A DNA stretch of 64,000 nucleotides from Candidatus Zhuqueibacterota bacterium. GTDB taxonomy: Bacteria > Zhuqueibacterota > Zhuqueibacteria > Thermofontimicrobiales > Thiofontviventaceae. A program made the position numbers and the translations under genes. The notes beneath the pieces were generated by a model, which saw only the letters and a program-made list of their open reading frames with translations, ran no database searches and was not told where the DNA came from. Of this stretch, positions 39,989 to 61,600 are shown in pieces. Position 1 is the first letter of the stretch, and the number at the start of each line of letters is the position of its first letter. Location: NCBI GenBank assembly GCA_016931935.1, contig JAFGDW010000160.1, positions 2,918 to 66,917 of the forward strand, in the 5' to 3' direction.

Positions 39989-40603
39989 ATGGCAAAAATC
40001 AAATACACTAAAAATGAGCTGAAACGCCAGAAAGACAATCTCAAGCGATTTACCCGTTATTTGCCAACGCTGGAATTGAAGAAACAACAATTGCTCGTGG
40101 AAATCCGTACCATCCAGACCGCGGTTGACCGATTGGAAATAGAAACTCAACAATTGGAGCAGGATGTGCGCCAATGGGCGGATGTGTTTGCGGAAGACAT
40201 CGATTTGAACACGATGTTTAAAGTGACTGAAATTCTAACCGATGAAGGCAATATTGCCGGAATTGATATTCCATTGTTTAAAGATGTGTTGTTTGAGGAT
40301 TTCGATTACGACTATTTTCAAACGCCGCTATGGGTGGACAAAGCGCTGGATGTCACCAAGACGCAAATCAAGCGCAAATTGGAATTGCAGGTACTGCATA
40401 AACAACAGGAAATCATTCGGGAAGAACTTCGCGTTACAATCCAGCGCATTAAGCTGTTTGAAGAAGTGAAAATTCCGGAAGCCAAAGAAAATATCCGTGT
40501 CATCCAGATATTTCTAGGGGACCAGATGACTGCGGCGGTAGTTCGCGGGAAAATTGCCAAAGGCAAAATCGAAAAGAAGAAAAAAGAGGAGACCCCCGCA
40601 TGA
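39989..40603 (+). CDS. V-type ATP synthase subunit D
   Basis: TKNELKRQK..RYLPTLELKKQQL; QRIKLFEEVKIPEAKENIR. Confidence 0.93.
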   Translation: MAKIKYTKNELKRQKDNLKRFTRYLPTLELKKQQLLVEIRTIQTAVDRLEIETQQLEQDVRQWADVFAEDIDLNTMFKVTEILTDEGNIAGIDIPLFKDVLFEDFDYDYFQTPLWVDKALDVTKTQIKRKLELQVLHKQQEIIREELRVTIQRIKLFEEVKIPEAKENIRVIQIFLGDQMTAAVVRGKIAKGKIEKKKKEETPA

Positions 40604-42363
40604 TTGTAGCGATGAAGAAGGTCACGCTGCTGCTTGCTAAAAAGCACCGTGACAGCGGATTGAAGCGATTGCGGCAACTGGGTGTCCTGCATGTACATGA
40701 TCTCCAGCCACCTGCGGCGGAAGATATTCAAAGCCTGGAAATGAAGATGGAAAATATTGACCGGGCGCTCACAATTATTGACAATGACAATCTGCCTACG
40801 CAAACCGCTTCTGATGATGCAGCGGCTGTAGCCGAGCAGATGCTGGCATTTACCCAGCAAAAGGACGCGTTAACGCGTGAGTTGGGCGAATATCAAACTA
40901 TGCAACAGTGGTTCGAGCGATGGAGTGATGTCTCAAACGCTTCAGTTCAACAATTAAAAGAAAATGGCATTTTTGTTCGTCTTTACGTAACGGATAAAGG
41001 TGCCCAAAAAAATATTCCCGGCGATAAAATGATCCATGTCGCCAATGAAATTCAGAATACAGTTTATTTGGCGCTGATTTCCGAGGCAGAAGACGATCGA
41101 CTGGATTTCAAGGAAGAAACGATTCCGCAAATAGAGCCGAGTGAAGTTCATAGCAAAATCAATGAACTCACCCAAACGATTGAAGGAATCAATGCAAAAG
41201 TTACTGAAATGGCCGAATATCAGCAAGCGCTTATCGATTTAAAGTCAACACTTGCAAAGCAACTGGAACTGAGCCGCGTAAAGTATGGCATGGGTGATTT
41301 TGGCGAAATTGCCGGCCTGCAAGGCTTTTGCCCGGTTGAGCAATTGAGCTACGTTCAGAAGGCTGCTGAGCAGGAAGGATGGGGCTACATTGTTGAGGAA
41401 CCTGATAATCCTGCGGATGTACCGACGCTGATTAAAACGCCAAAATGGCTACGAATGATTCAGCCGGTGTTCAGTTTTATGGGAACATTACCCGGATATG
41501 AGGAAATGGATGTAAGCCTGGTATTTCTCACATTTTTCAGTCTGTTTTTTGCTATGCTGGTTGGTGATGGCGGTTACGGGCTGGTCTTCCTGATCCTGAC
41601 AATCTTGATAGGTCGGAAAAGCAAGAGTGATTTTGTAAAACTACTCTATGTGTTAAGCCTGTCAACGATCGTTTGGGGACTTGTTACCGGAAACTGGTTC
41701 GGATCCAAAACGATTATTCAATTGCCATTTCTGAAAATGTTCGTCATTCCAAAAATGGACGCGTTCTCGGATGTGTCAACCCCATTTGTCATGCAACTTT
41801 CACTGACAGTCGGCATCATTCAATTGAGTGTAGCGCATTTAATGGCTGCAGGCAAAAAGAGTAACTCAATGACTGCCCTGGCCGACATCGGATGGGTGAT
41901 AACGCTATGGGGTGTCTTTTTTGTAGCAAATCAACTTGTTTTGGGCAAAGAACCACCATTCTTTATGAAGTATATGTTGATCGGTGGAATGACAACAATT
42001 CTGCTATTCGCCAATTTCCAGAAAAATATATTAAAAGGCGTATTGCAAACACTAGGTAATTTGCCACTGGATGTGATCAGCTCCTTTTCGGATATTGTTT
42101 CGTACATCCGTCTGTTTGCTGTAGGATTTGCATCGTTTATCGTTGCCTCCAGCTTTAACACCATGGCTGTTGGGTCCGGCATTGATAGCGTCGTTAGCGG
42201 TATCATCGCGGCGATTATCTTATTTCTGGGACACTCGCTGAACATTGCTTTGTGCGGAATGGCAGTGCTGGTACACGGCGTTCGTTTGAATATGCTCGAA
42301 TTTTCCGGTCATGTTGGTGTACAATGGACCGGAAAGCCGTATGAGCCATTTAAAGAGAAATAA
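40600..42363 (+). CDS. V-type ATP synthase subunit I (a)
   Basis: MIVAMKKV; FFAMLVGDGGYG; SDIVSYIRLFAVG (essential Arg); HGVRLNMLEF. Confidence 0.93.
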   Translation: MIVAMKKVTLLLAKKHRDSGLKRLRQLGVLHVHDLQPPAAEDIQSLEMKMENIDRALTIIDNDNLPTQTASDDAAAVAEQMLAFTQQKDALTRELGEYQTMQQWFERWSDVSNASVQQLKENGIFVRLYVTDKGAQKNIPGDKMIHVANEIQNTVYLALISEAEDDRLDFKEETIPQIEPSEVHSKINELTQTIEGINAKVTEMAEYQQALIDLKSTLAKQLELSRVKYGMGDFGEIAGLQGFCPVEQLSYVQKAAEQEGWGYIVEEPDNPADVPTLIKTPKWLRMIQPVFSFMGTLPGYEEMDVSLVFLTFFSLFFAMLVGDGGYGLVFLILTILIGRKSKSDFVKLLYVLSLSTIVWGLVTGNWFGSKTIIQLPFLKMFVIPKMDAFSDVSTPFVMQLSLTVGIIQLSVAHLMAAGKKSNSMTALADIGWVITLWGVFFVANQLVLGKEPPFFMKYMLIGGMTTILLFANFQKNILKGVLQTLGNLPLDVISSFSDIVSYIRLFAVGFASFIVASSFNTMAVGSGIDSVVSGIIAAIILFLGHSLNIALCGMAVLVHGVRLNMLEFSGHVGVQWTGKPYEPFKEK

Positions 42364-42514
42364 TCGTTCCGCCCTGATATATCGGGATGGAATGATGTAT
42401 TATAAATTTAAAATATGTAATTTTAATATTTCATTTTTCATATTTCATATTGATAAATGATGCCAAAAACTTTACTGATTGTTATACCAGATCTTATTTG
42501 AAAGGAGATTTATC

Positions 42515-42955
42515 ATGGTCGAAGGATTAGGTGATATGAGTCTGTCACTGGCGATTGCTGCCATTGGTTCAGCTTTGGGTACGGGCGTTGCTGGTATGGC
42601 CTCTGTGGGGGCCTGGAAGCGTGCGTTTATGGCGAACAAAGCCGCTCCATTTTTGCTGGTCGTATTTGTTGGTGCCCCATTATCACAGACAATTTATGGT
42701 ATGATTTTACGAAATGCAATTCAAGGCGCCAATTTAGACCCGAAAAGTTACGTTTACCAGATGATACTTGGCGGAATGGCCGGATTAGCAATGGGGTTGT
42801 CCGCTTATATGCAAGGCAAAGCTGGTGCCAAAGCCGCTGATGCTCTGGCTGAAACCGGAAAAGGATTTGGTAATTATATTATGGTCGTTGGTGTTATCGA
42901 AACCGTAGCACTGTTTGTGATGGTGTTTACAATGACTGCATTGCCAACTGCATAA
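42515..42955 (+). CDS. V-type ATP synthase subunit K (c, four-TM)
   Basis: GSALGTGVAG, GAPLSQTIYG, GVIETVALF; ATG 42515 after AAGGAG. Confidence 0.92.
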   Translation: MVEGLGDMSLSLAIAAIGSALGTGVAGMASVGAWKRAFMANKAAPFLLVVFVGAPLSQTIYGMILRNAIQGANLDPKSYVYQMILGGMAGLAMGLSAYMQGKAGAKAADALAETGKGFGNYIMVVGVIETVALFVMVFTMTALPTA

Positions 42956-42989
42956 CAAAATAGCAATATTATTTCAACAAGATTTGTGG

Positions 42990-43031
42990 AACACGCAGCG
43001 GACAGATGAATGTCCACTGCGTGTTTTTTTT
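42990..43031 (+). terminator. Intrinsic terminator of V-ATPase operon
   Basis: AACACGCAGCGGACA-gatgaa-TGTCCACTGCGTGTT followed by a T run. Confidence 0.8.
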
Positions 43032-43069
43032 GTTGGAGGAGGAGGTACTTGAAATTAATAACTGACGGA

Positions 43070-43240
43070 TTAACGAATAATTGTAGTTGTCATTGATAAA
43101 TCATTAGGAGTCATCTGCTTGTCCGTAGTATTGAGTAACGACCGTTGGCACCACATTGTCATTGCAAATGTCACGATAAGCATGACGATTATGACTTTTA
43201 AAATGAGACCAAAAAAAGTGTAAACAATTTTAGTAATCAC
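43070..43240 (-). CDS. Small single-TM hypothetical protein
   Basis: GTG at 43240 after AGGAGG, overlapping the upstream stop; hydrophobic FFGLILKVIIVMLIVTFAM. Confidence 0.45.
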   Translation of the reverse strand: MITKIVYTFFGLILKVIIVMLIVTFAMTMWCQRSLLNTTDKQMTPNDLSMTTTIIR

Positions 43241-43745
43241 CTGGCCTCCTATCTGCATATTTTAAATTTGGGGGCTGCTTTTTTTTGCCCTTAAATCCCC
43301 ATGCAAGCCCTATGATTGAAAAAAAACATGGAACACATCGAAACCGCTCCAGCAGAATTTTGAAAAAATCGAAAATCCGTTGCAAATTTTCTGAAGTAAA
43401 TAATGCGGCTGCAATTGTGCCTTTAAAGATCAAAACATCACATACAAATACTAAAATAATTACTATGATAATGACATGTTTTGTAATCCCTAAAAATCGA
43501 CCTATTAAAAAGCCGATAAATGTTGGAAGCAATATCAAAAGAAAGAATTTTCTCAAGAATTCAATATCATTTCTTGGAAGGATCTGTTGTGGCGTTTGAT
43601 CTTGAAAGGGTTGTTTATAAAAAATAAATAATGGAATTGTGGCAGTACATTGAAATACAATCACAGATGGAGCGCAATTAGACTGAGTTGGTGGATGAAT
43701 GGATGGTTGCACAAGAGCAACTATCAGCGAAATATATAAAAGCAT
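43230..43745 (-). CDS. Hypothetical multi-TM membrane protein (C-terminal part FUN14-like)
   Basis: ATG 43745 after GGAGG; TFIGFLIGRFLG..IIIVIILVFV..IGLAWGFK pattern recalls FUN14 family (unverified). Confidence 0.55.
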   Translation of the reverse strand: MLLYISLIVALVQPSIHPPTQSNCAPSVIVFQCTATIPLFIFYKQPFQDQTPQQILPRNDIEFLRKFFLLILLPTFIGFLIGRFLGITKHVIIIVIILVFVCDVLIFKGTIAAALFTSENLQRIFDFFKILLERFRCVPCFFSIIGLAWGFKGKKKQPPNLKYADRRPGDY

Positions 43746-43880
43746 GTTTACCTCCAAGAGTCTGTTGAATCATATTTGCCGAAGAATGTGCACGATTGCA
43801 GACCATCATGGAGCGCATGCGTGATGCTAAGAACAAAAAGCCGTAATTTTTGGCTTATTTGGCTCTCCAATTACAATATG

Positions 43881-43926
43881 TACAAAAAATGCACTTAACG
43901 CAATTATTGAAACGGTTAAAAACGGT
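43881..43926 (-). promoter_or_regulatory. Promoter with tandem direct-repeat operator, copy 1
   Basis: Minus strand: ACCGTT-ttta-ACCGTT-N7-TTGCGT-N17-CATATT. Confidence 0.65.
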
Positions 43927-44135
43927 TTAATTACTATTTAAGGATTGGATTATTTAACCTGGATTATTCCCGGTCTGTTCTCTTTAATGAAATTACTAAC
44001 CAGACTGGACAGATGTTATTTTAGCAAAATATTCTAATAGACATGAATCGTTAATTCGGATAATTTTGTGAAAAACGAAAGGTGAAACGCATTATGCAAA
44101 CACAGACAATAGAGTTACGTCTCACCTTTGTATAT

Positions 44136-45668
44136 TTAATTCAGGTTGGGGGATATTGAAACTTTGGCATTAAGCCAGTAGCCTTTTCCGCGACCTTGTA
44201 CCTGGGGAATTAGATCGGTTGCTTCGATTTTGTCCAGCTTGCGTCTGATTGAATAGATCCATGATCGGATATCGTCGCTTTGAAAATTGGGGAAGCGTTG
44301 TTTAATTTTGTTTAAAAATATGTCCCATTCAGGCTGCTGAATTTCGTTGTTTTGAAGCGATGATGACAAGCAGTTTGTTTGGTCAGGAAATTCAAGTTCA
44401 TTGTTCATGCCCAATGATACATTTTTAACGCTTTTATAAGCCATGTACAACAATGCCATTTTTTCCTTCCAATCCATAAGTAAGGCGGGCAATCGTTGCT
44501 GATTATTAAATATATCAATTTCAATGCTGCCAGCATCCAGGAATGATTTCAGGAATAATTGTTCCGCTGATGTTGAACCAATGGTATCACCCGGTGATGT
44601 ATGGTAAATATGAATATGATAGCGAGACGCGTTTTCATGTTCATAAGTTGGGGGTTCTTTTTCGAGCAAAGTTTGTGAAAGATAGTCCTGATAAAGTTTG
44701 CTACGGAATGTGCAGTGACCATTGCTTTCACAAATAGGACCCGCACCGGTAATGGAAAATGTATCATAAGGCAGAAAGTTGATACGTTCACCATGAAGCA
44801 TTCTTAAGATAATCTTCTTCAATTCAGGCTGATCTTTCAACTCGGCAGCTAGTGTATCGATATTGGTACTGTTCTGATAGAGCTTGTAAATTGAATATTC
44901 GACATCTTGGTCTGTTAATTGTTTTTGTGTTTGCATGCCTGCATCGTACAAAATTGAACACAACTGTTGTAATAATTGGGGATGGCCGCTTGTTTTAAAA
45001 TAAATCAATTCCAAAATCCCGGTATCGGCGAAGGGCGTTAAATGGTGCATAATAGCTTGTGCTTGCGCAAAAGTAAAATTTGTTAATTGCAGCTTTTGGG
45101 CAATATTAAAAGGAGATGTTGGACCAAGTGTAAGTTCCACAAGATTGGCAGAACAAGCGACGATCACGCTAAATTTATTTAGCACGGGTTCCATCAGTCG
45201 TTCATTAAAAATATTTCGCCAAATAGTGAGAAATGACTGTGCCAAAGGTGCATGTTCTATTTCGTCTATAAAGAAAATCAATTTGGAAGGAAGATCAGCC
45301 GCTAACGTTTTCAGGTAGTTAACAAAATCAATTTCAGGGCCAAAGTGAGTCGAAGTAATTGTATCGCTATCGATTTTGATCCCGGTAAGTAGATCGCGAA
45401 GCTTGTTGTTGACCAGACTAAAGAACTTAACAGGATCATCGGGCATATTACTCATATAAAGATAAATGTTTGGGATATCCCCCAATTCCATATGTAATTG
45501 TTGGATAAAAGTCGTTTTCCCAATTTGACGTGGGCCAAGAATTGCCCAGTAATCGCCACGAAAAATACCGGTTATTACCTCATCAAGCTGTTCGCGCCGT
45601 TTAACCAAAACAGATGAATTAATAACAGGATTTAATGGCCCGAGAAATTTATATGGATTTTCGGGCAT
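44136..45668 (-). CDS. AAA_35/STAND-like NTPase with C-terminal OmpR-like winged HTH (putative transcription regulator)
   Basis: NPY..GP, Walker A GPRQIGKTT, Walker B IFFIDEIE, SPFNIA, TSGHPQLLQQLC; C-terminal DDIRSWIYSIRRKL..IPQVQGRGKGYWL. ATG 45668 after GAGGAG overlaps the upstream stop. Confidence 0.78.
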   Translation of the reverse strand: MPENPYKFLGPLNPVINSSVLVKRREQLDEVITGIFRGDYWAILGPRQIGKTTFIQQLHMELGDIPNIYLYMSNMPDDPVKFFSLVNNKLRDLLTGIKIDSDTITSTHFGPEIDFVNYLKTLAADLPSKLIFFIDEIEHAPLAQSFLTIWRNIFNERLMEPVLNKFSVIVACSANLVELTLGPTSPFNIAQKLQLTNFTFAQAQAIMHHLTPFADTGILELIYFKTSGHPQLLQQLCSILYDAGMQTQKQLTDQDVEYSIYKLYQNSTNIDTLAAELKDQPELKKIILRMLHGERINFLPYDTFSITGAGPICESNGHCTFRSKLYQDYLSQTLLEKEPPTYEHENASRYHIHIYHTSPGDTIGSTSAEQLFLKSFLDAGSIEIDIFNNQQRLPALLMDWKEKMALLYMAYKSVKNVSLGMNNELEFPDQTNCLSSSLQNNEIQQPEWDIFLNKIKQRFPNFQSDDIRSWIYSIRRKLDKIEATDLIPQVQGRGKGYWLNAKVSISPNLN

Positions 45669-48453
45669 CTTCAATAGTCTCCTCGACAAAGTTTTCGATA
45701 TTATTCCGACGTTTTAAGATTTCCGGAAATACCGGAAGTGCGAATTGATATTTCCCACCTTGTTGTGGTATGAAAATATATCGTAGCATTAGATTACTTA
45801 AATGGGTGTTAAGCATAACGCTTGAAAGTTTAACATTGTGATTGGATAGCGTTGTTTTGAGATGATTTAAAGTAAATGTGCCGCCTTCTAAATGATGCTG
45901 GAGTGCAAAAACAACGATCAGGCGTTCAATTGGATGAATGTCATTAGTGAAGAACAGGTAAAAGTCATTAACCACATAATTTTCGTACTTAAAGGATTCA
46001 AAAAAATCATCAATATCTGTCTGGGCAATTATTCGCTTGGTTCCGTTTAATCGATTATTTTCAATTCTCTCAATTAAATTTTTACTAACATACTGAAGCA
46101 AATTGGGGTGGCAGGATGTTTTTTCCAAAATAGTGGCATGGCACAGGGGACTTTCATAATGGATGCCCAGGTTTTCCATCGGCTGAGTAATTAGCGAAAG
46201 CGCATCTTCCTCCTTCAGTTTTTCAAGTTCTATTACTTCACAAAAATTATATAAGGGCGAACGAATACTCCTACTGCTCTTAAATAACTCCTCAAAGCCG
46301 GAGAAGATTACCTGACACAACTCTTCCTGATACATTGATCGAAATGTTTCAATTAAATTGTAATTATTCGCACTATCGTACATCAATAATTTATCGATTT
46401 CATCAATTAGCAAAACCGGTATTTTTTGTACACGCTTACGTAGCTCAACAATTATTGAGCGAAGGTCATTATCTTCATCCGTACCATCCATACACCAAAA
46501 GTGGTATTGTTTTAACTTACTCAACAGTGTATGAATAAAGGTATCATAATTCTGCTCGGCGGGCGATTCGATATCCAAATAAATTGGCAGCGAATTTGAT
46601 GGCATATTATCTTTGATCTTCAACAGCAGCGATGTTTTGCCAAGCTTACGTGCGCCGACAATTGCAAAATTGCGGGACTTCGACCGCAATATCCTGCCAA
46701 TTTCATCCTGACGGCCATAGAAAGTTGCTTTTACTGGTCCGTCTGTTTTATACGGTGAAATGATAGACGGTTTTACCTGTTTAAGTAATATTTCCTGTTT
46801 AAAGTACTGGATCGGTCGGGAAGAAACCGCAATGTTTTTAATATCGTTTTCTTCCAGCAGCACAATGCCTAGATACTTTTTATCGACAAGCCGGGAAATC
46901 TGGGATGACTTCCGCAAGCAGATCATCATTGATGGATTTGCCGGCTTGTCTTGTTTGAGAATCGCATCCTGAAAATAGTTGATATCAAGTTCGGATATAT
47001 CCATCCTTTTAGGAACAAATAACAGCACATTTTCCAAGCCATCAAGATCAAGGCTGCCCATATTTATCGTATAATAACTTTTTTTATCATCAGGTTCGTT
47101 TGTGATGATAAAATCGAGAATGTTACAAACAATTTTGACCAGACAATCGAGATCGTCCTGGTCAATCACTCCGTTATGCAATTTTTCCTGAAGTCCGCTC
47201 CAGCATTGTGCCAGACGTATAATTTGCTTAATATTATCAATTGGCCGGGGAATGACATTCCAGGGAATGATGTTGAGGATATTTTCTATTTGATGAAGCG
47301 GAACAGAGAAAGCAATCTTATCAAGATTTTCAGCGACAGTGCGTAACAGAGACCGACTGGCGGTGACCCACATTCCATATAATGGCACCTTGAACGGATT
47401 GCGTAGGAATAGCCTGTGATCGATTTTGTTGATATACCCATTTTCATATAATTGGACAAAAATCGAATTTAATTCTTCATCTGTAAATATTGCGTCAAGC
47501 AGCTTATGACCATTAAAAATATAATAATTTCCGAATTTTTGAGTTATCGCTTTATCCGATAGCGCGACGGCAACTATCCGGCTGCGATAATCAAGCCGTT
47601 GCCAGAAATGAAGAAAATCATCGCGTTTTCCTCTGATTAAATTATTCGCAACATGGAAAACATCTTCAGTATGACATTCAACTCGATTCACTCGCGAAAG
47701 ATAATGACTAATCGATTCAATCAGCAACTGCTGACAATATAGATTGCCGCCAGTTATTTTGAAAATTTCCTGCTGCGCGGTCGCATCGCATTCAATACAA
47801 TGTTTTTCAAGCTCACGTTGCATGCTTTCAAACGATGGTGTTTCCAAAAACATATTTAAATCAATTCGAGATGCCGAATTAACAAGTTCACTCATAACTG
47901 ATTTATTCATCATCATGTACACATTTTGGTTTCCAGCCAGAATTAAGCGAAACTTATCTTGTTTCGTTAATAGGTAGTGAAAAAACTGAAAAATATGTTC
48001 GAGTGTTTCGTTATCAATTACATCATGCAGGAAGTGGATTTCATCATACATAAGCAGTAAAATTACATTTTCATCAGTTTTTTCTGCTATATCGTCCATA
48101 AAAAGTGTGAGTTCATCTTCTGCAATACTTAATCGCAGTGACAAATCCGATGTAAGCAAATTAATTCCCGAATTGAGCAGTGCCGTTCGGAGAGCCCGAT
48201 ATGTATTAAGGAAAAAAGCACCAGGTTCGATTTCCCTGGTATCGATATAAGCCGAGATGTAGTTTGGTCCGGGAATATCATGGTCATCTATAATTCGTGT
48301 AAGCGTACTTGTTTTGCCGGCGCCCATTACGCCTTGAATAATAATGAGTTTTGTGATTGGCGCTACTTCGAACTCATGTTTTATTTTTTCAACAATTTCC
48401 TGGGAATAAATGTAATCGCGATTCGAATGTATGGACGACGAAGGTAACGTCAT
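45649..48453 (-). CDS. Protein with two tandem STAND-like (AAA_16/ATPase_2-type) NTPase modules
   Basis: Module 1: GVMGAGKTS, LLMYDEIH, TGGNLYCQQL. Module 2: SPY..GP..FYGRQDEI, GARKLGKTSLL, LLIDEID, TSCHPNLLQ. ATG 48453 after GAGGAG (alternative 48510). Confidence 0.8.
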   Translation of the reverse strand: MTLPSSSIHSNRDYIYSQEIVEKIKHEFEVAPITKLIIIQGVMGAGKTSTLTRIIDDHDIPGPNYISAYIDTREIEPGAFFLNTYRALRTALLNSGINLLTSDLSLRLSIAEDELTLFMDDIAEKTDENVILLLMYDEIHFLHDVIDNETLEHIFQFFHYLLTKQDKFRLILAGNQNVYMMMNKSVMSELVNSASRIDLNMFLETPSFESMQRELEKHCIECDATAQQEIFKITGGNLYCQQLLIESISHYLSRVNRVECHTEDVFHVANNLIRGKRDDFLHFWQRLDYRSRIVAVALSDKAITQKFGNYYIFNGHKLLDAIFTDEELNSIFVQLYENGYINKIDHRLFLRNPFKVPLYGMWVTASRSLLRTVAENLDKIAFSVPLHQIENILNIIPWNVIPRPIDNIKQIIRLAQCWSGLQEKLHNGVIDQDDLDCLVKIVCNILDFIITNEPDDKKSYYTINMGSLDLDGLENVLLFVPKRMDISELDINYFQDAILKQDKPANPSMMICLRKSSQISRLVDKKYLGIVLLEENDIKNIAVSSRPIQYFKQEILLKQVKPSIISPYKTDGPVKATFYGRQDEIGRILRSKSRNFAIVGARKLGKTSLLLKIKDNMPSNSLPIYLDIESPAEQNYDTFIHTLLSKLKQYHFWCMDGTDEDNDLRSIIVELRKRVQKIPVLLIDEIDKLLMYDSANNYNLIETFRSMYQEELCQVIFSGFEELFKSSRSIRSPLYNFCEVIELEKLKEEDALSLITQPMENLGIHYESPLCHATILEKTSCHPNLLQYVSKNLIERIENNRLNGTKRIIAQTDIDDFFESFKYENYVVNDFYLFFTNDIHPIERLIVVFALQHHLEGGTFTLNHLKTTLSNHNVKLSSVMLNTHLSNLMLRYIFIPQQGGKYQFALPVFPEILKRRNNIENFVEETIEDARKSI

Positions 48454-48542
48454 GGTTTGCTCCTCTTCAAGAAATGAAGATGAATTTGGTGTTAAATTAC
48501 CATAATTCATATGCTCTATACCTTGTCTTAAAATCGATAAAA

Positions 48543-49460
48543 TTACTGCAGCTGCAGCCCAAAGGATTTTGGAACTTGTTTGAACCCAGTTACAGATGAT
48601 TGGTTTGATTGAAAATACCGCTTGAGTGAAATTCTTTTTTCCTCCGTGATGCACTCAAACGAAGTCTCTGTTTTGTTATTGGCATAACAATACAGATCAT
48701 ATAAAATCGATCGGTAGGTTTTTCGGGTAAGTGCATAAATACTGGGCGCGGTGAGATAGTAAGGTTGTGTTTTATTATCACAGATGAGCGGGGGAAGTGC
48801 ACCAAGTCCCGAAGTATGATTTGAAGAAATAAAAAAATCGGCAGTTGCGATAGGCACGCCATAATAAAATTCAATAAGCTCCGATATAGATGGATGATGT
48901 CCCTTAAGATGATAAAAATTTGCAATTCGTGATATCAGATGTTCCCACGAAGAATCTATTCCAAATAATAGTGTATGTTTTACGTGATGGCGGGTCGATG
49001 ACTCTATATTATATATGAGATTTTTCAAATTGTCTTCGTGTAACCTGGACAAGCTGTCGATATTGCCATAAAATAGGACGCGCACCTCGTAAGCTTCTAA
49101 AAATCTTAGCCATAATGGTGAACTGAGAAGTAATTCCAGGCCGCGTTGCAATACCTGCTTTCGATATTGTTCGTCTCGTTTCAGGATTTTGGAGCTAATA
49201 AGGGGGACAAGGCAGGTATGCAGATTGTGATTAAATAATATATGAAGGTTAAAACGAAGTAGTGTGGATATTATTTGGACAAGTCGGTTGTAATAACCAA
49301 TGGATTTCAGGTTAAGATCAGACATTGCCAAAGCCAGACGACGGGTTCCGTTTGGGACAAATACGCCAATTTGGGGAAGCAAGGCCGAAGGAACATAGTG
49401 AAGTAAATCCTGTGTCGATAATGTCTGAAATTGATGACTGGTTAAAATTTTGGCCATCAC
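48543..49460 (-). CDS. Rv3378c-like (tuberculosinyl transferase / diterpene synthase, cis-prenyltransferase fold) protein
   Basis: Colinear match to recalled Rv3378c motifs: VFVPNGTRR (VFPFDGTRR), KRDEQY (DRGDRY), EVRVLFYG (EVHVLFYG), YYG..ADFFIS (YYG..ADMFIG), YYLTAPS..RSILYD (YFTVAPS..RRILYD); similar length. Confidence 0.8.
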   Translation of the reverse strand: MMAKILTSHQFQTLSTQDLLHYVPSALLPQIGVFVPNGTRRLALAMSDLNLKSIGYYNRLVQIISTLLRFNLHILFNHNLHTCLVPLISSKILKRDEQYRKQVLQRGLELLLSSPLWLRFLEAYEVRVLFYGNIDSLSRLHEDNLKNLIYNIESSTRHHVKHTLLFGIDSSWEHLISRIANFYHLKGHHPSISELIEFYYGVPIATADFFISSNHTSGLGALPPLICDNKTQPYYLTAPSIYALTRKTYRSILYDLYCYANNKTETSFECITEEKRISLKRYFQSNQSSVTGFKQVPKSFGLQLQ

Positions 49461-49513
49461 ATACCGAATTTAAAAGGTTAGTATTTTAAATTTCGTTATA
49501 TTTCAATATATGT

Positions 49514-49564
49514 AATATAATTTATAAAGGTAAAAAAGCAAGTTTAAAAACGGTTTTTAACGGT
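49514..49564 (-). promoter_or_regulatory. Promoter with tandem direct-repeat operator, copy 2
   Basis: Minus strand: ACCGTT-aaaa-ACCGTT-N7-TTGCTT-N16-TATATT; same geometry as 43881-43926. Confidence 0.65.
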
Positions 49565-49638
49565 AAAATTTAAAAATTTATAGCATGGCCGGAAATATGA
49601 CAATTGTGAAAATATTCTTTTAAGGGTCGAGAAAAAAC

Positions 49639-49667
49639 TTGACTTTTTTGTTTAATTCCGTTAAATT
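49639..49667 (+). promoter_or_regulatory. Putative sigma70 promoter of accBC
   Basis: TTGACT-N17-TAAATT. Confidence 0.5.
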
Positions 49668-49741
49668 GGTAAACTCTATTCAAAGCGACGCGTAGTGTGA
49701 AGGGATGGAGGAAAAATTAGAAGAAATCTGTGGAGCTGATT

Positions 49742-50221
49742 ATGAATCCTAAAGAAATTCAGAAACTTATCGAACTGGTTGAAAAAAGCAGCGTAAATGA
49801 ATTGGAAGTGAATCGTTGGGGCAGAAAGGTCATTATTCGGAAACAATCCGGTAATCATGCAATGGTATCAATCCCTAATGAACAAGTATTTTACGCTTCC
49901 AATCCTGCTGCTCCGGTTCAACCTGCCGCTGCACCAGCGCCGCAACCTGCCGCACCTGCCCCAACACCTGCAAAAGATTATTTAGTTGAAGTTCGCTCAC
50001 CAATGGTCGGCACGCTTTATCGTGCTCCGGCGCCCGACGCTGCTCCATATGTTAAAGAAGGTGATAAAGTGAACAAAGGCCAGGTGCTCTGCATTATCGA
50101 AGCGATGAAACTCATGAATGAAATTGAAGCTGAATTTCCATTTAAAATTGTGGAAATTTTAGTAGAAAATGGTCAACCGGTTGAATACGATCAGCCACTT
50201 TTCAAAGTTGAAAAAGCCTAG
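49742..50221 (+). CDS. accB: Acetyl-CoA carboxylase biotin carboxyl carrier protein
   Basis: Ala/Pro linker, [21 protein letters not shown] biotinylation motif. Confidence 0.95.
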
Positions 50222-50328
50222 CAGATCAATTTTCTCAGAATCTGATTATTGCAGTTGTGCCATTGTAATCATGAATGTTGAATCGATTGCTACTGATGTC
50301 CCGATAATTGAAAATAAAGGAAGCAAAT

Positions 50329-51675
50329 TTGTTCAAGAAAATATTAATTGCAAACCGCGGAGAGATTGCGCTGCGTATTATTCGCGCATGTAAAGAACTT
50401 GGCATTTCAACTGTTTCGGTCTATTCAAAAGCAGATGAAGATTCACTGCACGTTCGGTTTGCAGATGAGGTCGTATGTATCGGTCCCGGCCCCAGCCGTG
50501 AAAGTTATTTGAATATTCCTCGAATTATAAGCGCGGCCGAAATTACAAACGCTGAGGCAATTCATCCCGGCTATGGTTTTCTTGCGGAAAATGCCGAATT
50601 TGCAGAAATGTGTGAAGCCTCTGGCATTCGGTTTATCGGGCCATCTGCTGACATGATTTCGAACATGGGCGATAAAGCATTTGCCAAAGAAAAAATGCAG
50701 CAGGCCGGTGTGCCAACAATCCCTGGAAGTCGGGGAATTCTCAAGGGAGTGGAAAATGCCAAAAAAGTCGCTGAAGAAATTGGTTATCCAGTCATCCTGA
50801 AAGCAACCGCTGGCGGCGGTGGACGTGGTATGCGCATAGTTCGCGCTCCGGAAGAACTCGAAAAAGCCTATGCTACTGCCAGTGGGGAAGCAGCCGCTGG
50901 TTTCAATAATCCTGATTTGTACCTGGAAAAGTATTTCGAACAACCACGCCACATTGAAATTCAGATCATGGGCGATTCCAAAGGCAATGTAATTGCACTT
51001 GGCGAACGTGAATGTTCCATTCAACGTAAACATCAGAAATTGATTGAAGAATCACCCTCACCGGCTGTTTCGCAAGAACTGCGTGAACGATTTATTGAAG
51101 CAGCGGTAAAAGGTGCCAAGCTGGTGAACTATCAAAGTGCAGGCACGATTGAATTTTTGCTGGATGGTGAAAAATTCTATTTTATGGAAATGAATACCCG
51201 GATTCAGGTAGAACATCCGGTAACCGAATATGTGATTGGTGTGGATTTATTGAAGGAACAAATTCGTATCGCTGCCGGACATGAAATTTCGTGCTCGAGT
51301 GCATATAAAATTCGCGGTCACTCAATCGAGTGTCGAATAAACGCTGAAGATCCGGACAATGGATTTCGACCAAGTCCGGGCCGGATTACTAATTTCCATG
51401 TACCTGGCGGACCGGGAGTACGCGTGGACACGCATGTCTATGACCAATATAATATCCCGTCATTCTACGATTCGTTAATTGCTAAATTAATTACTCACGG
51501 CAACACTCGTGATGAAGCTATTCGCCGTATGATTCGCAGTCTGGAAGAATTTGTCATTGAGGGGATAAAAACCACGATTCCGTTTCAATTAAAAGTATTG
51601 AATGATCCGGATTTTCAGTCAGGCAACTTCAATACAAAATACCTCGAACACTTTTTAGCAAAAAATAATTCGTAA
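50329..51675 (+). CDS. accC: Acetyl-CoA carboxylase biotin carboxylase subunit
   Basis: [44 protein letters not shown]; TTG start after AAGGAAG. Confidence 0.96.
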
Positions 51676-58665: not shown

Positions 58666-61600
58666 ATGAAGATGACCCCAATTTTTAAGCGATGTTTTCT
58701 ACGAATTACTGGTGTAACAATGTTGTTGCTGATGATCAGTTCGCGATCGTGGGGACAGAATTTTCCGATTTATACCCATCCGGAACTGGATTGGTTCACT
58801 ATTAGCACAAAACATTTTGAAATTCACTACCATGAAGGCGCTGAGCGAACCGCACAAGTTGCTGCCAAAATCGGCGAAGAAATATATTACCCGGTCACAT
58901 CGCTGTATTTATATGAACCCGATACAAAAATTCATATTATTATCCGCGACCACGATGATTATTCCAATGGCGGCGCTTTTTATTACGATAATAAAATTGA
59001 AATCTGGGCGAATCCCATGGATTTCATCCTGCGCGGCACGCATAACTGGATGCGCAACGTGATGACCCACGAATTCTCCCATATGATTTCGTTAGGCGCA
59101 GCCCGGAAAATGACGCGATTGGTTCCGGCGTTTTATTTTCAATATATGGATTATGAACCGGAGAAAAATCCATACGTATTGCGCGGATTTCCCAACCGTA
59201 TCGCTTCTTACCCGCTTGCTATGACAGTCGTACCGATGTGGTTTGCTGAAGGCGTTGCCCAGTTTCAATTGCCCGGTTTGGATTATGATGTCTGGGATAC
59301 GCATCGGGATATGATTTTACGTGATGCTGTGATTGAGCACAATGTGCTGGATTATAATGAAATGAGTGTGTTCGGTGATAATAGCATCCGCAATGAAAAA
59401 GTATATAATCATGGTTATTCCATGACAAAATACATTGCCGATACCTACGGGGTAGAATCGTTACGGAAAATAATGCATGCCATGCAAGCCCCCTGGCGGT
59501 TCAGTATTGATGGCGCGCTAAAGAGTGTACTCAATGTGAGTGAAAAACAGCTACATGAGGATTGGCAAAACTACATTGAGAAGATGTATGCAGATCGATT
59601 ATCAGTCATTCAGAAACACGTGGTAACAGGCGTCATAGATCAAAACAAAGGGAAAGCAAACCTGTTTCCAATCTGGAATCCAACGGGATCAGGATATGCT
59701 TTTTTATCGAATCGTGGGGAAGATTATCTCTCGCGGACAACACTGTATCTGGCGATCCCCGGTATTCAGGAGCCGAAAAAAATTAAAGTGGGAGTCAACT
59801 CATCAATTTGCTGGTCACCAGATGGAAAAAAAATTGCTTATGCCCGACATTCAGCACCGGATAAGCATTTCTCACATTATCAGGATGTCTATATTTACGA
59901 TTTGGTTAAGAAGCAGGAAACGCCGCTCACAAAAAATCTTCGTGCTCAAAGTCCTGATTGGTCACCCACTGGTGAGGACATGTTGTTTGTGGTAACAAAG
60001 GATGGCACTCAGAACATTGCCACTGTCAACCTGAAAACACAAAAAGTAATGCATTTAACCAAATTTAAAAACGGTGAACAGATTTTTTCACCGCGTTATT
60101 CGCCAAATGGCCAGGTCATCGTATTTTCAGTATCCCGCAAGGATGATCGTGACCTTGGGCTGATAAGCGCCGATGGCAAAAAACTTAAATTTATTCTGAC
60201 TGACGAGTACGATGCACGAGATCCTGTGTTCAGTGCTGACGGAAAATCAATTTACTTCAGTTACGATAAAACCGGCATCTTTAATATTTATCGAATGACA
60301 ATTGACGGATCAAAAGTTGAACTTCTGACCAATGTAGTTGGAGGCGCATTTATGCCGGCGGTAAATAAAGACGGCAAGCTATTATTCACGTGTTACCAGC
60401 ATGAAGGTTTTGCCATCGCACAATTAGATAATCCGGTGCCTATCGATCCGGCGAATGCGGAATATGTACCGTATCAAAAGAATTTTCACGTGGCTTCGGT
60501 TGATGCCGATGCAATTGTGGCAATCGAAGATGGGAACGGACATAATGCACAGAGCAATTATGATGATATGCAATTGCCGGAAGTGAAGCCCACTCCCTAT
60601 AAATATCAATACTCGAAAATGCAATTTTTCCCACGAGTCATGCGTGACTACGGAACGACTAAAGTTGGGACCTATTTCACATCCAGCGAGCTATTGAACA
60701 ATTATGACATCATCGGTGGTGTGGCAGCGAATTCTGACTATGATCTTGATCTATTTGGAATAGTCAATTATCGACGTTGGAAACAGCCACTCTTTTTGGA
60801 AATATATTCCCAAATTCTGCATCATGGTGAAAACGGATTGTTGGAATTTGAAGTTAGCCCTGGCGATACATTCCGCCAGGCGGATACTCCGTTTAATTAT
60901 AAGTATAATTTACTCGAAGCTGATATGGGGATTGAAGGCAGCTTTTTAAATGATTTTAACCATCTACGTCTGGCATTTATTTTCAGTAGATACAATGCAA
61001 CTGTAAAATACCCGCTACAGCAGTATGAGCAGAAATATTCCTACACCTACCTGATTGGTCGGGCCTTGCAGTTGAAATGGAAAATTACTAATTTCAATGA
61101 TGATATATGGGCGGATTCGGAAATTAATCCACGTAATCAGCGTAAAATAACAATTACAGCCAATCAGGAATATAATGCGTTTATCGATAGTTTTAAAGTC
61201 AGCAGTTACGGCACACTGGTTGAAGAGTACAAAAACTATAATTTTACAAAAGTTGAACTAAATTGGCGTGAATATATCGGGCTGATGTATAAAACCACGC
61301 TCGATTTGGAATTACAGGCCGGTGCGATTGTTCAACCTGTGCATGAATTCTTCAACTTTTTTGCTGGTGGTATGCTGGGAAACCGTGGATACCCGTATTA
61401 CAGCATCGAAGGGCGCAAATTGCTTCAGGGACGGGCGACATATCGGGTTCCGGTCTGGGATATTAATCACAAATTGCTATTTTGGTACATGGACGACTTA
61501 TATGCCGGCCTATTCTATGATTATGGCGATGCATTTAATGAAGATAAAATTGATTTAAACAACTTTAAAGGAAGCTATGGATTCGAATTCCGCTTATCGG

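Follow-up and report, generated by a model that had tools for sequence, protein, structure and literature searches.

We describe a gene cluster in a 64,000-nucleotide stretch of DNA (hereafter the window; contig JAFGDW010000160.1 of assembly GCA_016931935.1, Candidatus Zhuqueibacterota bacterium) in which a homologue of the Mycobacterium tuberculosis enzyme Rv3378c is linked to a double STAND nucleoside triphosphatase (NTPase) and to an AAA_35-type NTPase. The pairing of STAND NTPases with an Rv3378c-like enzyme is conserved across phyla. It occurs in two operon families, together about 27 loci, which are not found in the defence and natural-product libraries and the literature searched; the layout seen here had been called undescribed in an initial annotation of this DNA, and no match to it turned up there. 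We regard the cluster as a conflict or regulatory system built around STAND NTPases, with an enzyme partner that has no precedent. As for its workings, we tentatively prefer, at somewhat less than even chances, a model in which the NTPases form an NLR-like, NTP-gated module, the enzyme makes a prenyl-derived ligand and, in this copy, the system activates its own transcription.

The first gene of the cluster encodes a true homologue of Rv3378c, as had been proposed for the 305-amino-acid (aa) protein. In a phmmer search against the PDB, it matched the Rv3378c chains ('diterpene synthase', 3wqk and others) with an E-value (E) of 1.3e-20, and the alignment pairs residues 29–286 of the enzyme with residues 26–277 of the Rv3378c chain, which is the whole catalytic domain. 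There was no match in Pfam, NCBIfam or PADLOC (the last at E<=1). The family is small: when 1.84 billion representative proteins were searched exhaustively, 161 reached E<=0.001, of which 22 also passed E<=1e-30, and the closest member other than the enzyme itself is 37% identical to it.

In the phmmer alignment, tyrosines of the enzyme coincide with Tyr51 and Tyr90 of Rv3378c, which we take from the structure work of 2014 to be catalytic. The one at the Tyr90-equivalent position (Y98) is invariant in the 10 closest homologues. The motif DGTRR of Rv3378c reads NGTRR in our enzyme, so that the G-T-R-R part is retained and Asn replaces Asp34, presumably the Asp of the diphosphate-binding motif. 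We considered this exchange as the mark of a dead enzyme and rejected the idea. Across 150 representatives, 46 of which (many of them fragments) have no detectable motif, the first position is N in 52, D in 44, E in 4 and another residue in 4; most of the type-A and type-B loci described below carry D. As Asn is about as common as Asp across the family, it is a normal family state and no evidence of decay.

The initial annotation had also drawn an analogy to the pairing of such enzymes with a diterpene cyclase, and this part fails on context. SQHop_cyclase_C (PF13243) has no match in the source genome (7.9 Mb, 92% complete), and tblastn with two cyclase domains that are fused to other family members returned nothing in the 510 kb of the window and its related loci. 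The genome holds a single polyprenyl synthase. Because no cyclase partner was found, a housekeeping linear prenyl diphosphate is the most economical substrate, and we infer that the enzyme uses it.

The association of the enzyme with STAND NTPases was examined in a neighbourhood survey. Two peptide patterns taken from the 10 closest enzyme sequences led to 36 related loci (numbered L006 to L043 below; 4 from related genomes, 11 new ones from genome contigs and 21 from metagenome contigs). In 27 of the 36, a STAND NTPase gene comes just after the enzyme gene, in two layouts and in three labelled taxa. The initial annotation had staked its proposal on a conserved gene association and on a relationship to Rv3378c, and both are found; for its third condition, control of these promoters by the winged-helix protein, the support is indirect.

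Type A, with a double NTPase after the enzyme as in the window, accounts for 15 of the 36 loci (L006, L007, L008, L011, L015, L022, L024, L027, L028, L029, L035, L038, L041, L042 and L043, of which L041 is fragmentary and L038 rearranged). Eight of these loci have an AAA_35 gene behind the double NTPase, and in 4 the contig ends first. L038 and L042 have tandem extra NTPase genes: pairs of double NTPase and AAA_35 protein are tandemly duplicated behind a single enzyme gene (L042:2153-13145, L038:2192-11581), and in L038 a V-ATPase B-like gene is inserted inside the NTPase array. In the variant locus L021, a dCache_3-HAMP-PAS-nSTAND1 protein of 885 aa replaces the double NTPase and is followed by AAA_35-EAD9 (EAD9 23.1 bits, cut-off 25). 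This locus (L021:6414-17445, Anaerolineae) contains a membrane sensor fusion, and a 662-aa protein of no known family stands after AAA_35-EAD9; its enzyme ORF (open reading frame) has no recognisable xGxRR motif and a long branch.

Type B, a sister operon family, had been missed in the initial annotation. It was found in 11 of the 36 loci (L009, L012, L013, L014, L018, L019, L020, L032, L033, L036 and L037; for example L009:9863-18610). The order is enzyme, often GNAT, an AAA_16/NB-ARC-TPR STAND protein (910–966 aa), a second STAND protein (650–705 aa) and a radical SAM/SPASM protein that is 41–53% identical between loci. The second STAND protein bears an N-terminal TIR in L009 and L012. Directly after the enzyme gene of L013 (1184-2707) we found an ORC/Cdc6-like NTPase of the Sll1717 family with a C-terminal, OmpR-type Trans_reg_C domain that Pfam recognises (E 1.1e-13). 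It scores 191 bits to the NCBIfam 'DS41_1 anti-phage protein', below the cut-off of 370, and looks like a convergent NTPase-winged-helix design. Type A was seen in metagenome-assembled genomes labelled Cytophagia and Aminicenantes, type B in those labelled Cytophagia and Chloroflexota/Anaerolineae.

Three loci have a GNAT gene or fragment only (L030 and L031, contig end; L026, where other genes come after the GNAT fragment), five have no downstream sequence (L023, L025, L034, L039 and L040), and one, L017, fits neither layout and carries a five-GAF protein.

Among 40 related genomes, the distribution of the enzyme is patchy (4 of 40). In G013 and G008, it is followed by a double NTPase (40–43% identical) and then by an AAA_35 gene. 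In G004, a double-NTPase fragment (27% identity over 190 residues) comes after the enzyme, and the contig ends there. The double NTPase is full-length only in G008 and G013 and truncated in G004, and all three carry the enzyme; the seven other relatives with double-NTPase matches at E<=1e-10 have single-module relatives only. Between genomes, the proteins of the enzyme/NTPase trio are 34–44% identical, as against 59–88% for the flanking V-ATPase and AccBC proteins. A quick IQ-TREE phylogeny was built from 30 enzymes of the loci and from 28 representatives out of the 150, with L022, L029, L034, L035, L040, L041 and L043 excluded as partial or duplicate rows. It unites the STAND-linked enzymes (30 rows) in one clade with a Shimodaira-Hasegawa-like likelihood ratio (SH-aLRT) support of 99, apart from the 28 other representatives. 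The type-B enzymes form a subclade within it (support 97). Outside the STAND-linked clade, there are fusions to class II cyclase (P0035, P0062), HAD (P0043) and UPPS (P0148).

The protein encoded by the second gene is indeed a double NTPase. The mechanical ORF, from GTG 48654, has 1001 aa, and in the numbering of that ORF Pfam places AAA_22, ATPase_2 and nSTAND1 at 643–869 and weaker P-loop matches at 85–168. AAA_22 scores 64.8 bits and nSTAND1 30.0 bits against a cut-off of 27.1. Walker A and Walker B motifs are kept in both modules across ten aligned homologues (GxxGSGKT and FDDFD/YDEI in module 1, GARKIGKTS and DEID in module 2). An AlphaFold2 (AF2) model has a mean local confidence (pLDDT) of 81.1 and a global score (pTM) of 0.52. 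In the numbering of the 934-aa protein, residues 570–930 of the model align with the archaeal ATPase PAB2304 (2qen) at a Z-score (Z) of 23.0 over 316 residues and with plant NLR resistosomes and CED-4 at Z 17–20 over 300–316 residues, and residues 11–276 align with ORC subunits and MalT (8bob_C) at Z about 15. The protein matches the PADLOC model mad8 (E 5.8e-6), the best PADLOC match of the locus, over a P-loop stretch only; NCBIfam gave nothing above noise for the proteins of the locus.

Both NTPase modules claimed for this 934-aa protein therefore stand, while a nuclease-like middle domain had been missed. The domain resembles Mrr_cat in an ESM Atlas structure search (TM score 0.56–0.71 by query), which is a lead only; an ESM Atlas feature search gave 0.81, below the trust level, and was not used. 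An Mrr_cat-like domain also precedes nSTAND1 in Chloroflexota proteins of 490–506 aa. The nuclease motif D..QxK/R is present in Aminicenantes L015 and L011 and in metagenome locus L038, and its position reads N..PKR in the window and in Cytophagia-like relatives. Given N..PKR in place of D..QxK/R, the middle domain of this copy is probably not an active nuclease.

The third gene, which begins within the end of the double-NTPase gene (20-nt overlap), encodes the AAA_35 protein. The AAA_35 family (PF14516) is matched with 67.8 bits (cut-off 27, E 9.3e-19) over residues 24–338 of a 517-aa ORF, and PADLOC matches PDC-S01 (E 3.7e-4) by the P-loop only. The C-terminal 176 residues are conserved only in L024 and L008. 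When they were modelled alone with AF2 from a three-sequence alignment (pLDDT 78.1, pTM 0.79), the top 36 rows of a VIA-align search were all DNA-binding domains of the OmpR/PhoB type (Z 5.2–7.0; BaeR 7.0, AdeR 6.9, PhoB 6.1–6.2, CadC 5.6, ToxR 5.3), with 87–98 of about 100 residues aligned at a root-mean-square deviation of about 3 A. The best Foldseek rows are of the same kind, ArlR (E 0.054) being followed by BaeR, PhoB and AdeR. The model agrees with this fold (a sheet of four strands at the N-terminus, then three helices and a hairpin wing at the C-terminus), and by eye one can make out IRSWIxSIRxKL...GRGKGY, a motif of recognition helix and wing. As the ranking is uniform, the domain is covered almost completely and the motif can be seen, the predicted domain is likely to be an OmpR/PhoB-type winged helix. 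The overlapping AAA_35-type NTPase that was claimed initially is upheld by Pfam and the gene overlap, and the modelled fold makes its OmpR-like winged helix likely.

The winged helix is one of several alternative NTPase tails. On constant enzyme and NTPase cores we see the winged helix in the window, L024 and L008, EAD9 in L021, a transmembrane-like tail in L006, another tail in L015 and TIR on the type-B STAND protein. Since the variable parts are usually the outputs in conflict systems, the constant enzyme probably belongs to the core signalling part. Neighbours of conflict type were observed as well, namely TIR-KAP with SNF2/PLD (L018), KAP-FGE-sulfatase (L019) and, upstream, NACHT-FGE-sulfatase (L021). 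NTPase-FGE/CLec proteins of this kind are discussed as putative antigen sensors in PMC10907252. With its fast divergence, tandem NTPase duplication and patchy distribution, the family looks like a biological-conflict (immune-type) or self/non-self signalling system.

An operator common to both transcription units had been claimed, and two repeats were indeed found. The gene strand reads TACCGTTAAAAACCGTT ahead of the enzyme gene (operator 1) and AAACCGTTTTTAACCGT ahead of the 171-aa ORF (operator 2), and each repeat consists of two AACCGTT-like half-sites 10 bp apart (AACCGTT-N3-AACCGTT). Sites of the form ACGGTT-N4-ACGGT lie at 43912-43926 and 49550-49564; with up to one mismatch the window holds 3 of them, where 0.67 would be expected, and this number was reached in 0 of 100 shuffles. 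In the whole genome, exact operator sites number 3, two of them in this locus (reversed control 7), and the longer pattern with up to one mismatch has 5 sites, again two in this locus (control 7). As the search pattern had been derived from these very repeats, the counts are in part post hoc, which weighs against an operator; the comparative recurrence is therefore the stronger evidence.

That recurrence comes from a scan of 510,657 bases of the window and related loci. The repeat stands upstream of the enzyme gene without a mismatch in L023, L024 and L027, and in the intergenic region of L007 it takes the form of a palindrome, AACCGTTATTAACGGTT. Apart from these, the scan gave one extra site in L028 and one unrelated site at window position 61381. 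The position of the operator is thus retained between loci with a protein identity as low as 34–38%. Upstream of the enzyme in L006, L015 and L011 there is no such repeat; the AAA_35 proteins of L006 and L015 are without the winged helix, and L011 is without the AAA_35 gene.

Promoter-like hexamers follow operator 1, and operator 2 is followed by a TTGCGT-N17-CATATT block. The promoter scan as a whole is unenriched (30 sites against 25 expected, by the sigma-70 consensus, from which Bacteroidota promoters may differ). In L024, AACCGTATTACGGTT followed by TTGCGT-N17-TATATT is located downstream of the AAA_35 gene and mirrors the second promoter of the window. There (L024:15468-16064), the operator-bearing promoter precedes a gene for a membrane-anchored PD40 beta-propeller and not the orphan ORFs of our locus, which indicates that the regulated cargo differs between relatives. 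The additional site in L028 (2186-2201, AACCGTTAGTTACCGTT) is operator-like. It is 4.8 kb away from the enzyme gene, with an unrelated gene on either side, and could be another regulated target or a chance match.

Tandem half-sites spaced 10–11 bp apart next to a weak -35 element represent the activator mode of OmpR/PhoB proteins. A predicted winged helix and a conserved operator just upstream of -35-like hexamers fit positive autoregulation.

In the model that we prefer, the NTPases would act as an NLR-like, nucleotide-gated switch. Once switched on, they would oligomerise and so gather their winged helices. These would attach to the tandem pairs of AACCGTT half-sites that immediately precede the -35 regions at two weak promoters. 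Activation of their own operon would raise the enzyme in a positive feedback, and the downstream, lineage-specific unit of small membrane ORFs would be activated too. From a linear prenyl diphosphate of the housekeeping pool, the enzyme would make a small prenylated molecule, perhaps a nucleoside, and this molecule would be the ligand or signal of the system and not a killing effector. In a more specific and bolder version, which we consider doubtful, the product of the whole enzyme clade would be a prenylated nucleoside or nucleotide, and NLR-like STAND NTPases with interchangeable outputs would use it as their second messenger or regulatory nucleotide.

A number of observations weigh against this model. 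On the side of the enzyme, no chemistry is known for this clade, and no PADLOC match in the locus is convincing. The branch of our enzyme is long in the tree (1.71, median 0.73), and with Asn for Asp34 and an atypical composition as well, the enzyme could be drifting. On the side of the NTPases, neither the double NTPase nor the AAA_35 protein has a recognisable ligand-sensor repeat domain; for the former, Pfam shows no TPR, WD40 or LRR match and the AF2 model stops after the winged helix of module 2. The evidence for the C-terminal winged helix is moderate, its Z of at most 7.0 being below 8; Foldseek gave no row at E<=0.001, and Pfam Trans_reg_C (PF00486) no row for the AAA_35 protein even at E<=1. 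L008 has the winged helix, but its half-sites have a spacing of 20 bp and a distance of about 370 nt, upstream, with no convincing small ORF downstream of them, so this locus fits the operator model only partially. The AAA_35 gene is absent in L011 and L029.

The survey has its own bounds, which point the same way. Its patterns were derived from close relatives, so it covers this subfamily only, and L029 and L035 are near-duplicates of L011 and L015, respectively, which lowers the number of independent loci. In Cytophagia-like genomes, the module occupies one V-ATPase/accBC slot among housekeeping genes, with no defence island; the shared slot means that those copies share descent. A tblastn search with the enzyme against plasmid and phage collections gave zero matches.

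The enzyme might instead be the effector. STAND NTPases would then sense an invader or stress and unleash or induce the enzyme in an abortive infection, where it would arrest the cell either by using up an essential prenyl diphosphate (e.g. the pool of lipid carriers for the cell wall) or by attaching prenyl groups to adenine nucleotides. In favour of this, Rv3378c-type enzymes both cleave prenyl diphosphates by hydrolysis and use adenosine as an acceptor for the prenyl group (PMC11476799). The operator would put the enzyme under an NTPase-linked activator, the housekeeping pool would serve as substrate given that no dedicated substrate-making gene was found, and the neighbourhood has a conflict flavour. 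However, no other part is as constant as the enzyme, whose gene always comes first, whereas the NTPase tails vary. In STAND systems, the parts that vary, are fused or are linked by adaptors are normally the effectors (Kaur et al. 2020, PMC7159879). The enzyme carries no adaptor domain either, and in type-B operons TIR could already be the effector. We find an effector enzyme unlikely.

We judge it similarly improbable that the cluster is an ordinary biosynthetic or cell-cell signalling cluster, with the NTPases as AfsR/SARP- or MalT-like regulators and radical SAM and GNAT proteins for tailoring. A STAND protein with an OmpR-like winged helix at tandem repeats near -35 follows the logic of AfsR, and the combination of NTPase and winged helix recurs beside the enzyme in L013. 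Type B holds three enzymes, the housekeeping slot in Cytophagia-like genomes is stable and syntenic, and more distant family members are fused to terpene cyclases. Yet about 1,450 aa with three NTPase modules are disproportionate for one 305-aa enzyme, and the loci contain no cyclase, prenyl synthase, transporter or resistance gene. Many of them are without any DNA-binding domain, and TIR, EAD9, the nuclease-like domain, the KAP and NACHT-FGE neighbours, the duplications and the fast divergence suit a conflict system better.

That there is no functional link at all, the genes being neighbours by inherited synteny and the repeat a product of chance, is very improbable: the Cytophagia-like copies do always lie between V-ATPase and accBC by shared descent, and a 6.8-kb AT-rich region gives many chance repeats, but the same gene order occurs in Aminicenantes and unrelated metagenome contigs with different flanks, a sister enzyme clade is linked to a different STAND gene set, enzyme and double NTPase strictly co-occur among 41 genomes, and the operator keeps its place despite the low protein identity.

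Among known systems, the cluster shares enzyme homology, G-T-R-R and the aligned tyrosines with the Rv3377c-Rv3378c locus of M. tuberculosis and Haur_2145-2147 of Herpetosiphon aurantiacus. According to PMC9814783, known homologues lie in type II terpene-synthase clusters with a class II cyclase (44% of Rv3377c-family and 21% of Haur_2145-family clusters). The present locus differs from Rv3377c-Rv3378c in that no cyclase was found in the genome or in the 36 loci, the partners are STAND NTPases, the enzyme is of a separate clade and Asn stands for Asp.

AfsR (SARP-NB-ARC-TPR) and MalT resemble the AAA_35 protein in joining an NTP-gated STAND/AAA+ module to a DNA-binding domain, and AfsR, like the system proposed here, has an OmpR-like winged helix, direct repeats beside -35 and weak promoters to activate; AfsR (8k60_J) is among the winged-helix rows of VIA-align at Z 4.5. 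Here, in contrast, the winged helix is C-terminal and not N-terminal, the NTPase is of the AAA_35 type without a TPR or SUPR sensor, a second, double NTPase is translationally coupled to it, and the DNA-binding tail is swapped in sister loci.

The NTP-dependent conflict systems of multicellular bacteria (Kaur et al. 2020, PMC7159879; Kaur et al. 2021, PMC8195603) resemble our loci in nSTAND1, the candidate EAD9 of L021 (below its cut-off), TIR and FGE-sulfatase partners, constant cores with variable terminal domains, and taxa like those reported as enriched. The copy in the window is without an EAD or recognised effector. By term search, neither the layout of enzyme, double NTPase and AAA_35 nor a transcriptional output was found in the main texts of these two papers; 'prenyl' is absent from both and 'Rv3378' from that of PMC7159879, supplementary tables lying outside this search. 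The same holds for 'prenyl', 'terpen' and 'AAA_35' in the main text of a STAND survey of 2026 (PMC13581612, again supplementary tables outside). The literature searched contained nothing relevant on an association of an Rv3378c-type enzyme with STAND proteins, and neither PADLOC nor NCBIfam has a model for the enzyme.

The initial annotation had proposed a LuxI/LuxR-like or defence-like circuit. Likeness to LuxI/LuxR, and also to Thoeris, CBASS and Pycsar, is one of the proposed logic only (a ligand made by an enzyme, a receptor, and feedback on the synthase as for LuxI), and the ligand here is hypothetical. Homologous components are absent except for the type-B TIR, which has weak matches to Thoeris ThcB4 and to PADLOC TIR models; neither an acyl-homoserine-lactone synthase nor the LuxR family appeared in the Pfam and NCBIfam scans of the locus.

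The two small ORFs downstream of operator 2 call for more caution. Each is preceded by a Shine-Dalgarno-like GGAGG, and both have hydrophobic segments as described initially, but they are orphans of putative coding status: there is no Pfam or NCBIfam family match, no homologue in the 40 relatives, no tblastn match in any related locus, and for the 171-aa ORF one non-significant PADLOC row (E 0.11). The G+C content at third codon positions is 0.27 in the 171-aa ORF compared with 0.37–0.38 in the three upstream genes. An antisense ORF of 104 aa (plus strand, 43285-43599) lies within the 171-aa ORF, in the most AT-rich stretch of the cluster (G+C 0.35). The 171-aa and 62-aa ORFs may be lineage-specific genes. 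The proposal that they act as a membrane effector is not supported; L024 has a gene for a transmembrane PD40 protein in their place. A conserved effector made of the two membrane ORFs was rejected, with zero homologues in relatives or loci.

With regard to the setting, the ORF positions confirm five co-oriented ORFs, all on the minus strand, between the V-ATPase terminator and accB. The G+C content of the five-ORF region is 0.35–0.40 compared with 0.44–0.48 in the flanks. Inspection of the sequence showed a strong hairpin followed by a T run, which probably terminates the V-ATPase operon converging on the cluster and marks the distal end of the latter; it was absent from the listing of the computational terminator scan. 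Rfam gave zero matches at E<=1 across 42800-49900. Table 1 lists the features of the locus.

Table 1. Features of the locus and its borders (window positions unless residues are given)
Feature	Position	Strand	Remarks
V-ATPase genes	39989-42955	+	border of cluster
14-bp hairpin and T run	42991-43033	+	candidate terminator
Orphan ORF, 62 aa	43070-43258	-	one hydrophobic segment; GGAGG upstream
Orphan ORF, 171 aa	43230-43745	-	3-4 hydrophobic segments; GGAGG upstream
Operator 2	43912-43928	-	167 nt upstream of 171-aa ORF
AAA_35 NTPase	44136-45668	-	510 aa; called at 510 aa in public collection
Predicted OmpR/PhoB-like winged-helix domain	44139-44666	-	residues 335-510 of AAA_35 protein; AF2 fold
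Double NTPase	45649-48453	-	934 aa; 953 aa if start is ATG 48510
Restriction-endonuclease-like (Mrr_cat-like) domain	46771-47244	-	residues ~404-561 of double NTPase; ESM Atlas structure search
AAA+/STAND module 1	residues ~11-350 (934-aa numbering)	-	Walker motifs, AF2 model
nSTAND1 module 2 with winged helix	residues ~570-930 (934-aa numbering)	-	Pfam, AF2 model
Rv3378c-like enzyme, cis-prenyltransferase fold	48543-49460	-	305 aa (304 aa from ATG 49457)
Promoter-like hexamers TTTACC-18-TATATT	49505-49534	-	14 nt downstream of operator 1
Operator 1	49548-49564	-	88 nt upstream of enzyme ORF
accB/accC	49730-51675	+	other border of cluster

In bacteria, plants and animals alike, STAND/NLR-type NTPases have a central role in immunity. 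To our knowledge, few of them work with a dedicated small-molecule enzyme, and homologues of Rv3378c are known to us only from terpene pathways. If the product of the enzyme is a prenyl-nucleoside ligand, signalling molecules would gain a new class; an effector role of the enzyme would represent a new way to arrest a cell. The locus offers a tractable read-out, a 17-bp operator with two promoters and a predicted DNA-binding tail, which could reveal both the trigger of the NTPases and the product of the enzyme. Should the prenyl-nucleoside messenger be real, the family would constitute a branch of prokaryotic immunity or kin signalling that works through lipid nucleosides, with winged-helix transcription as the output here and TIR, a nuclease-like domain or EAD-recruited effectors elsewhere, and the terpene-nucleoside enzyme of M. 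tuberculosis would belong to a family with a broader signalling role.

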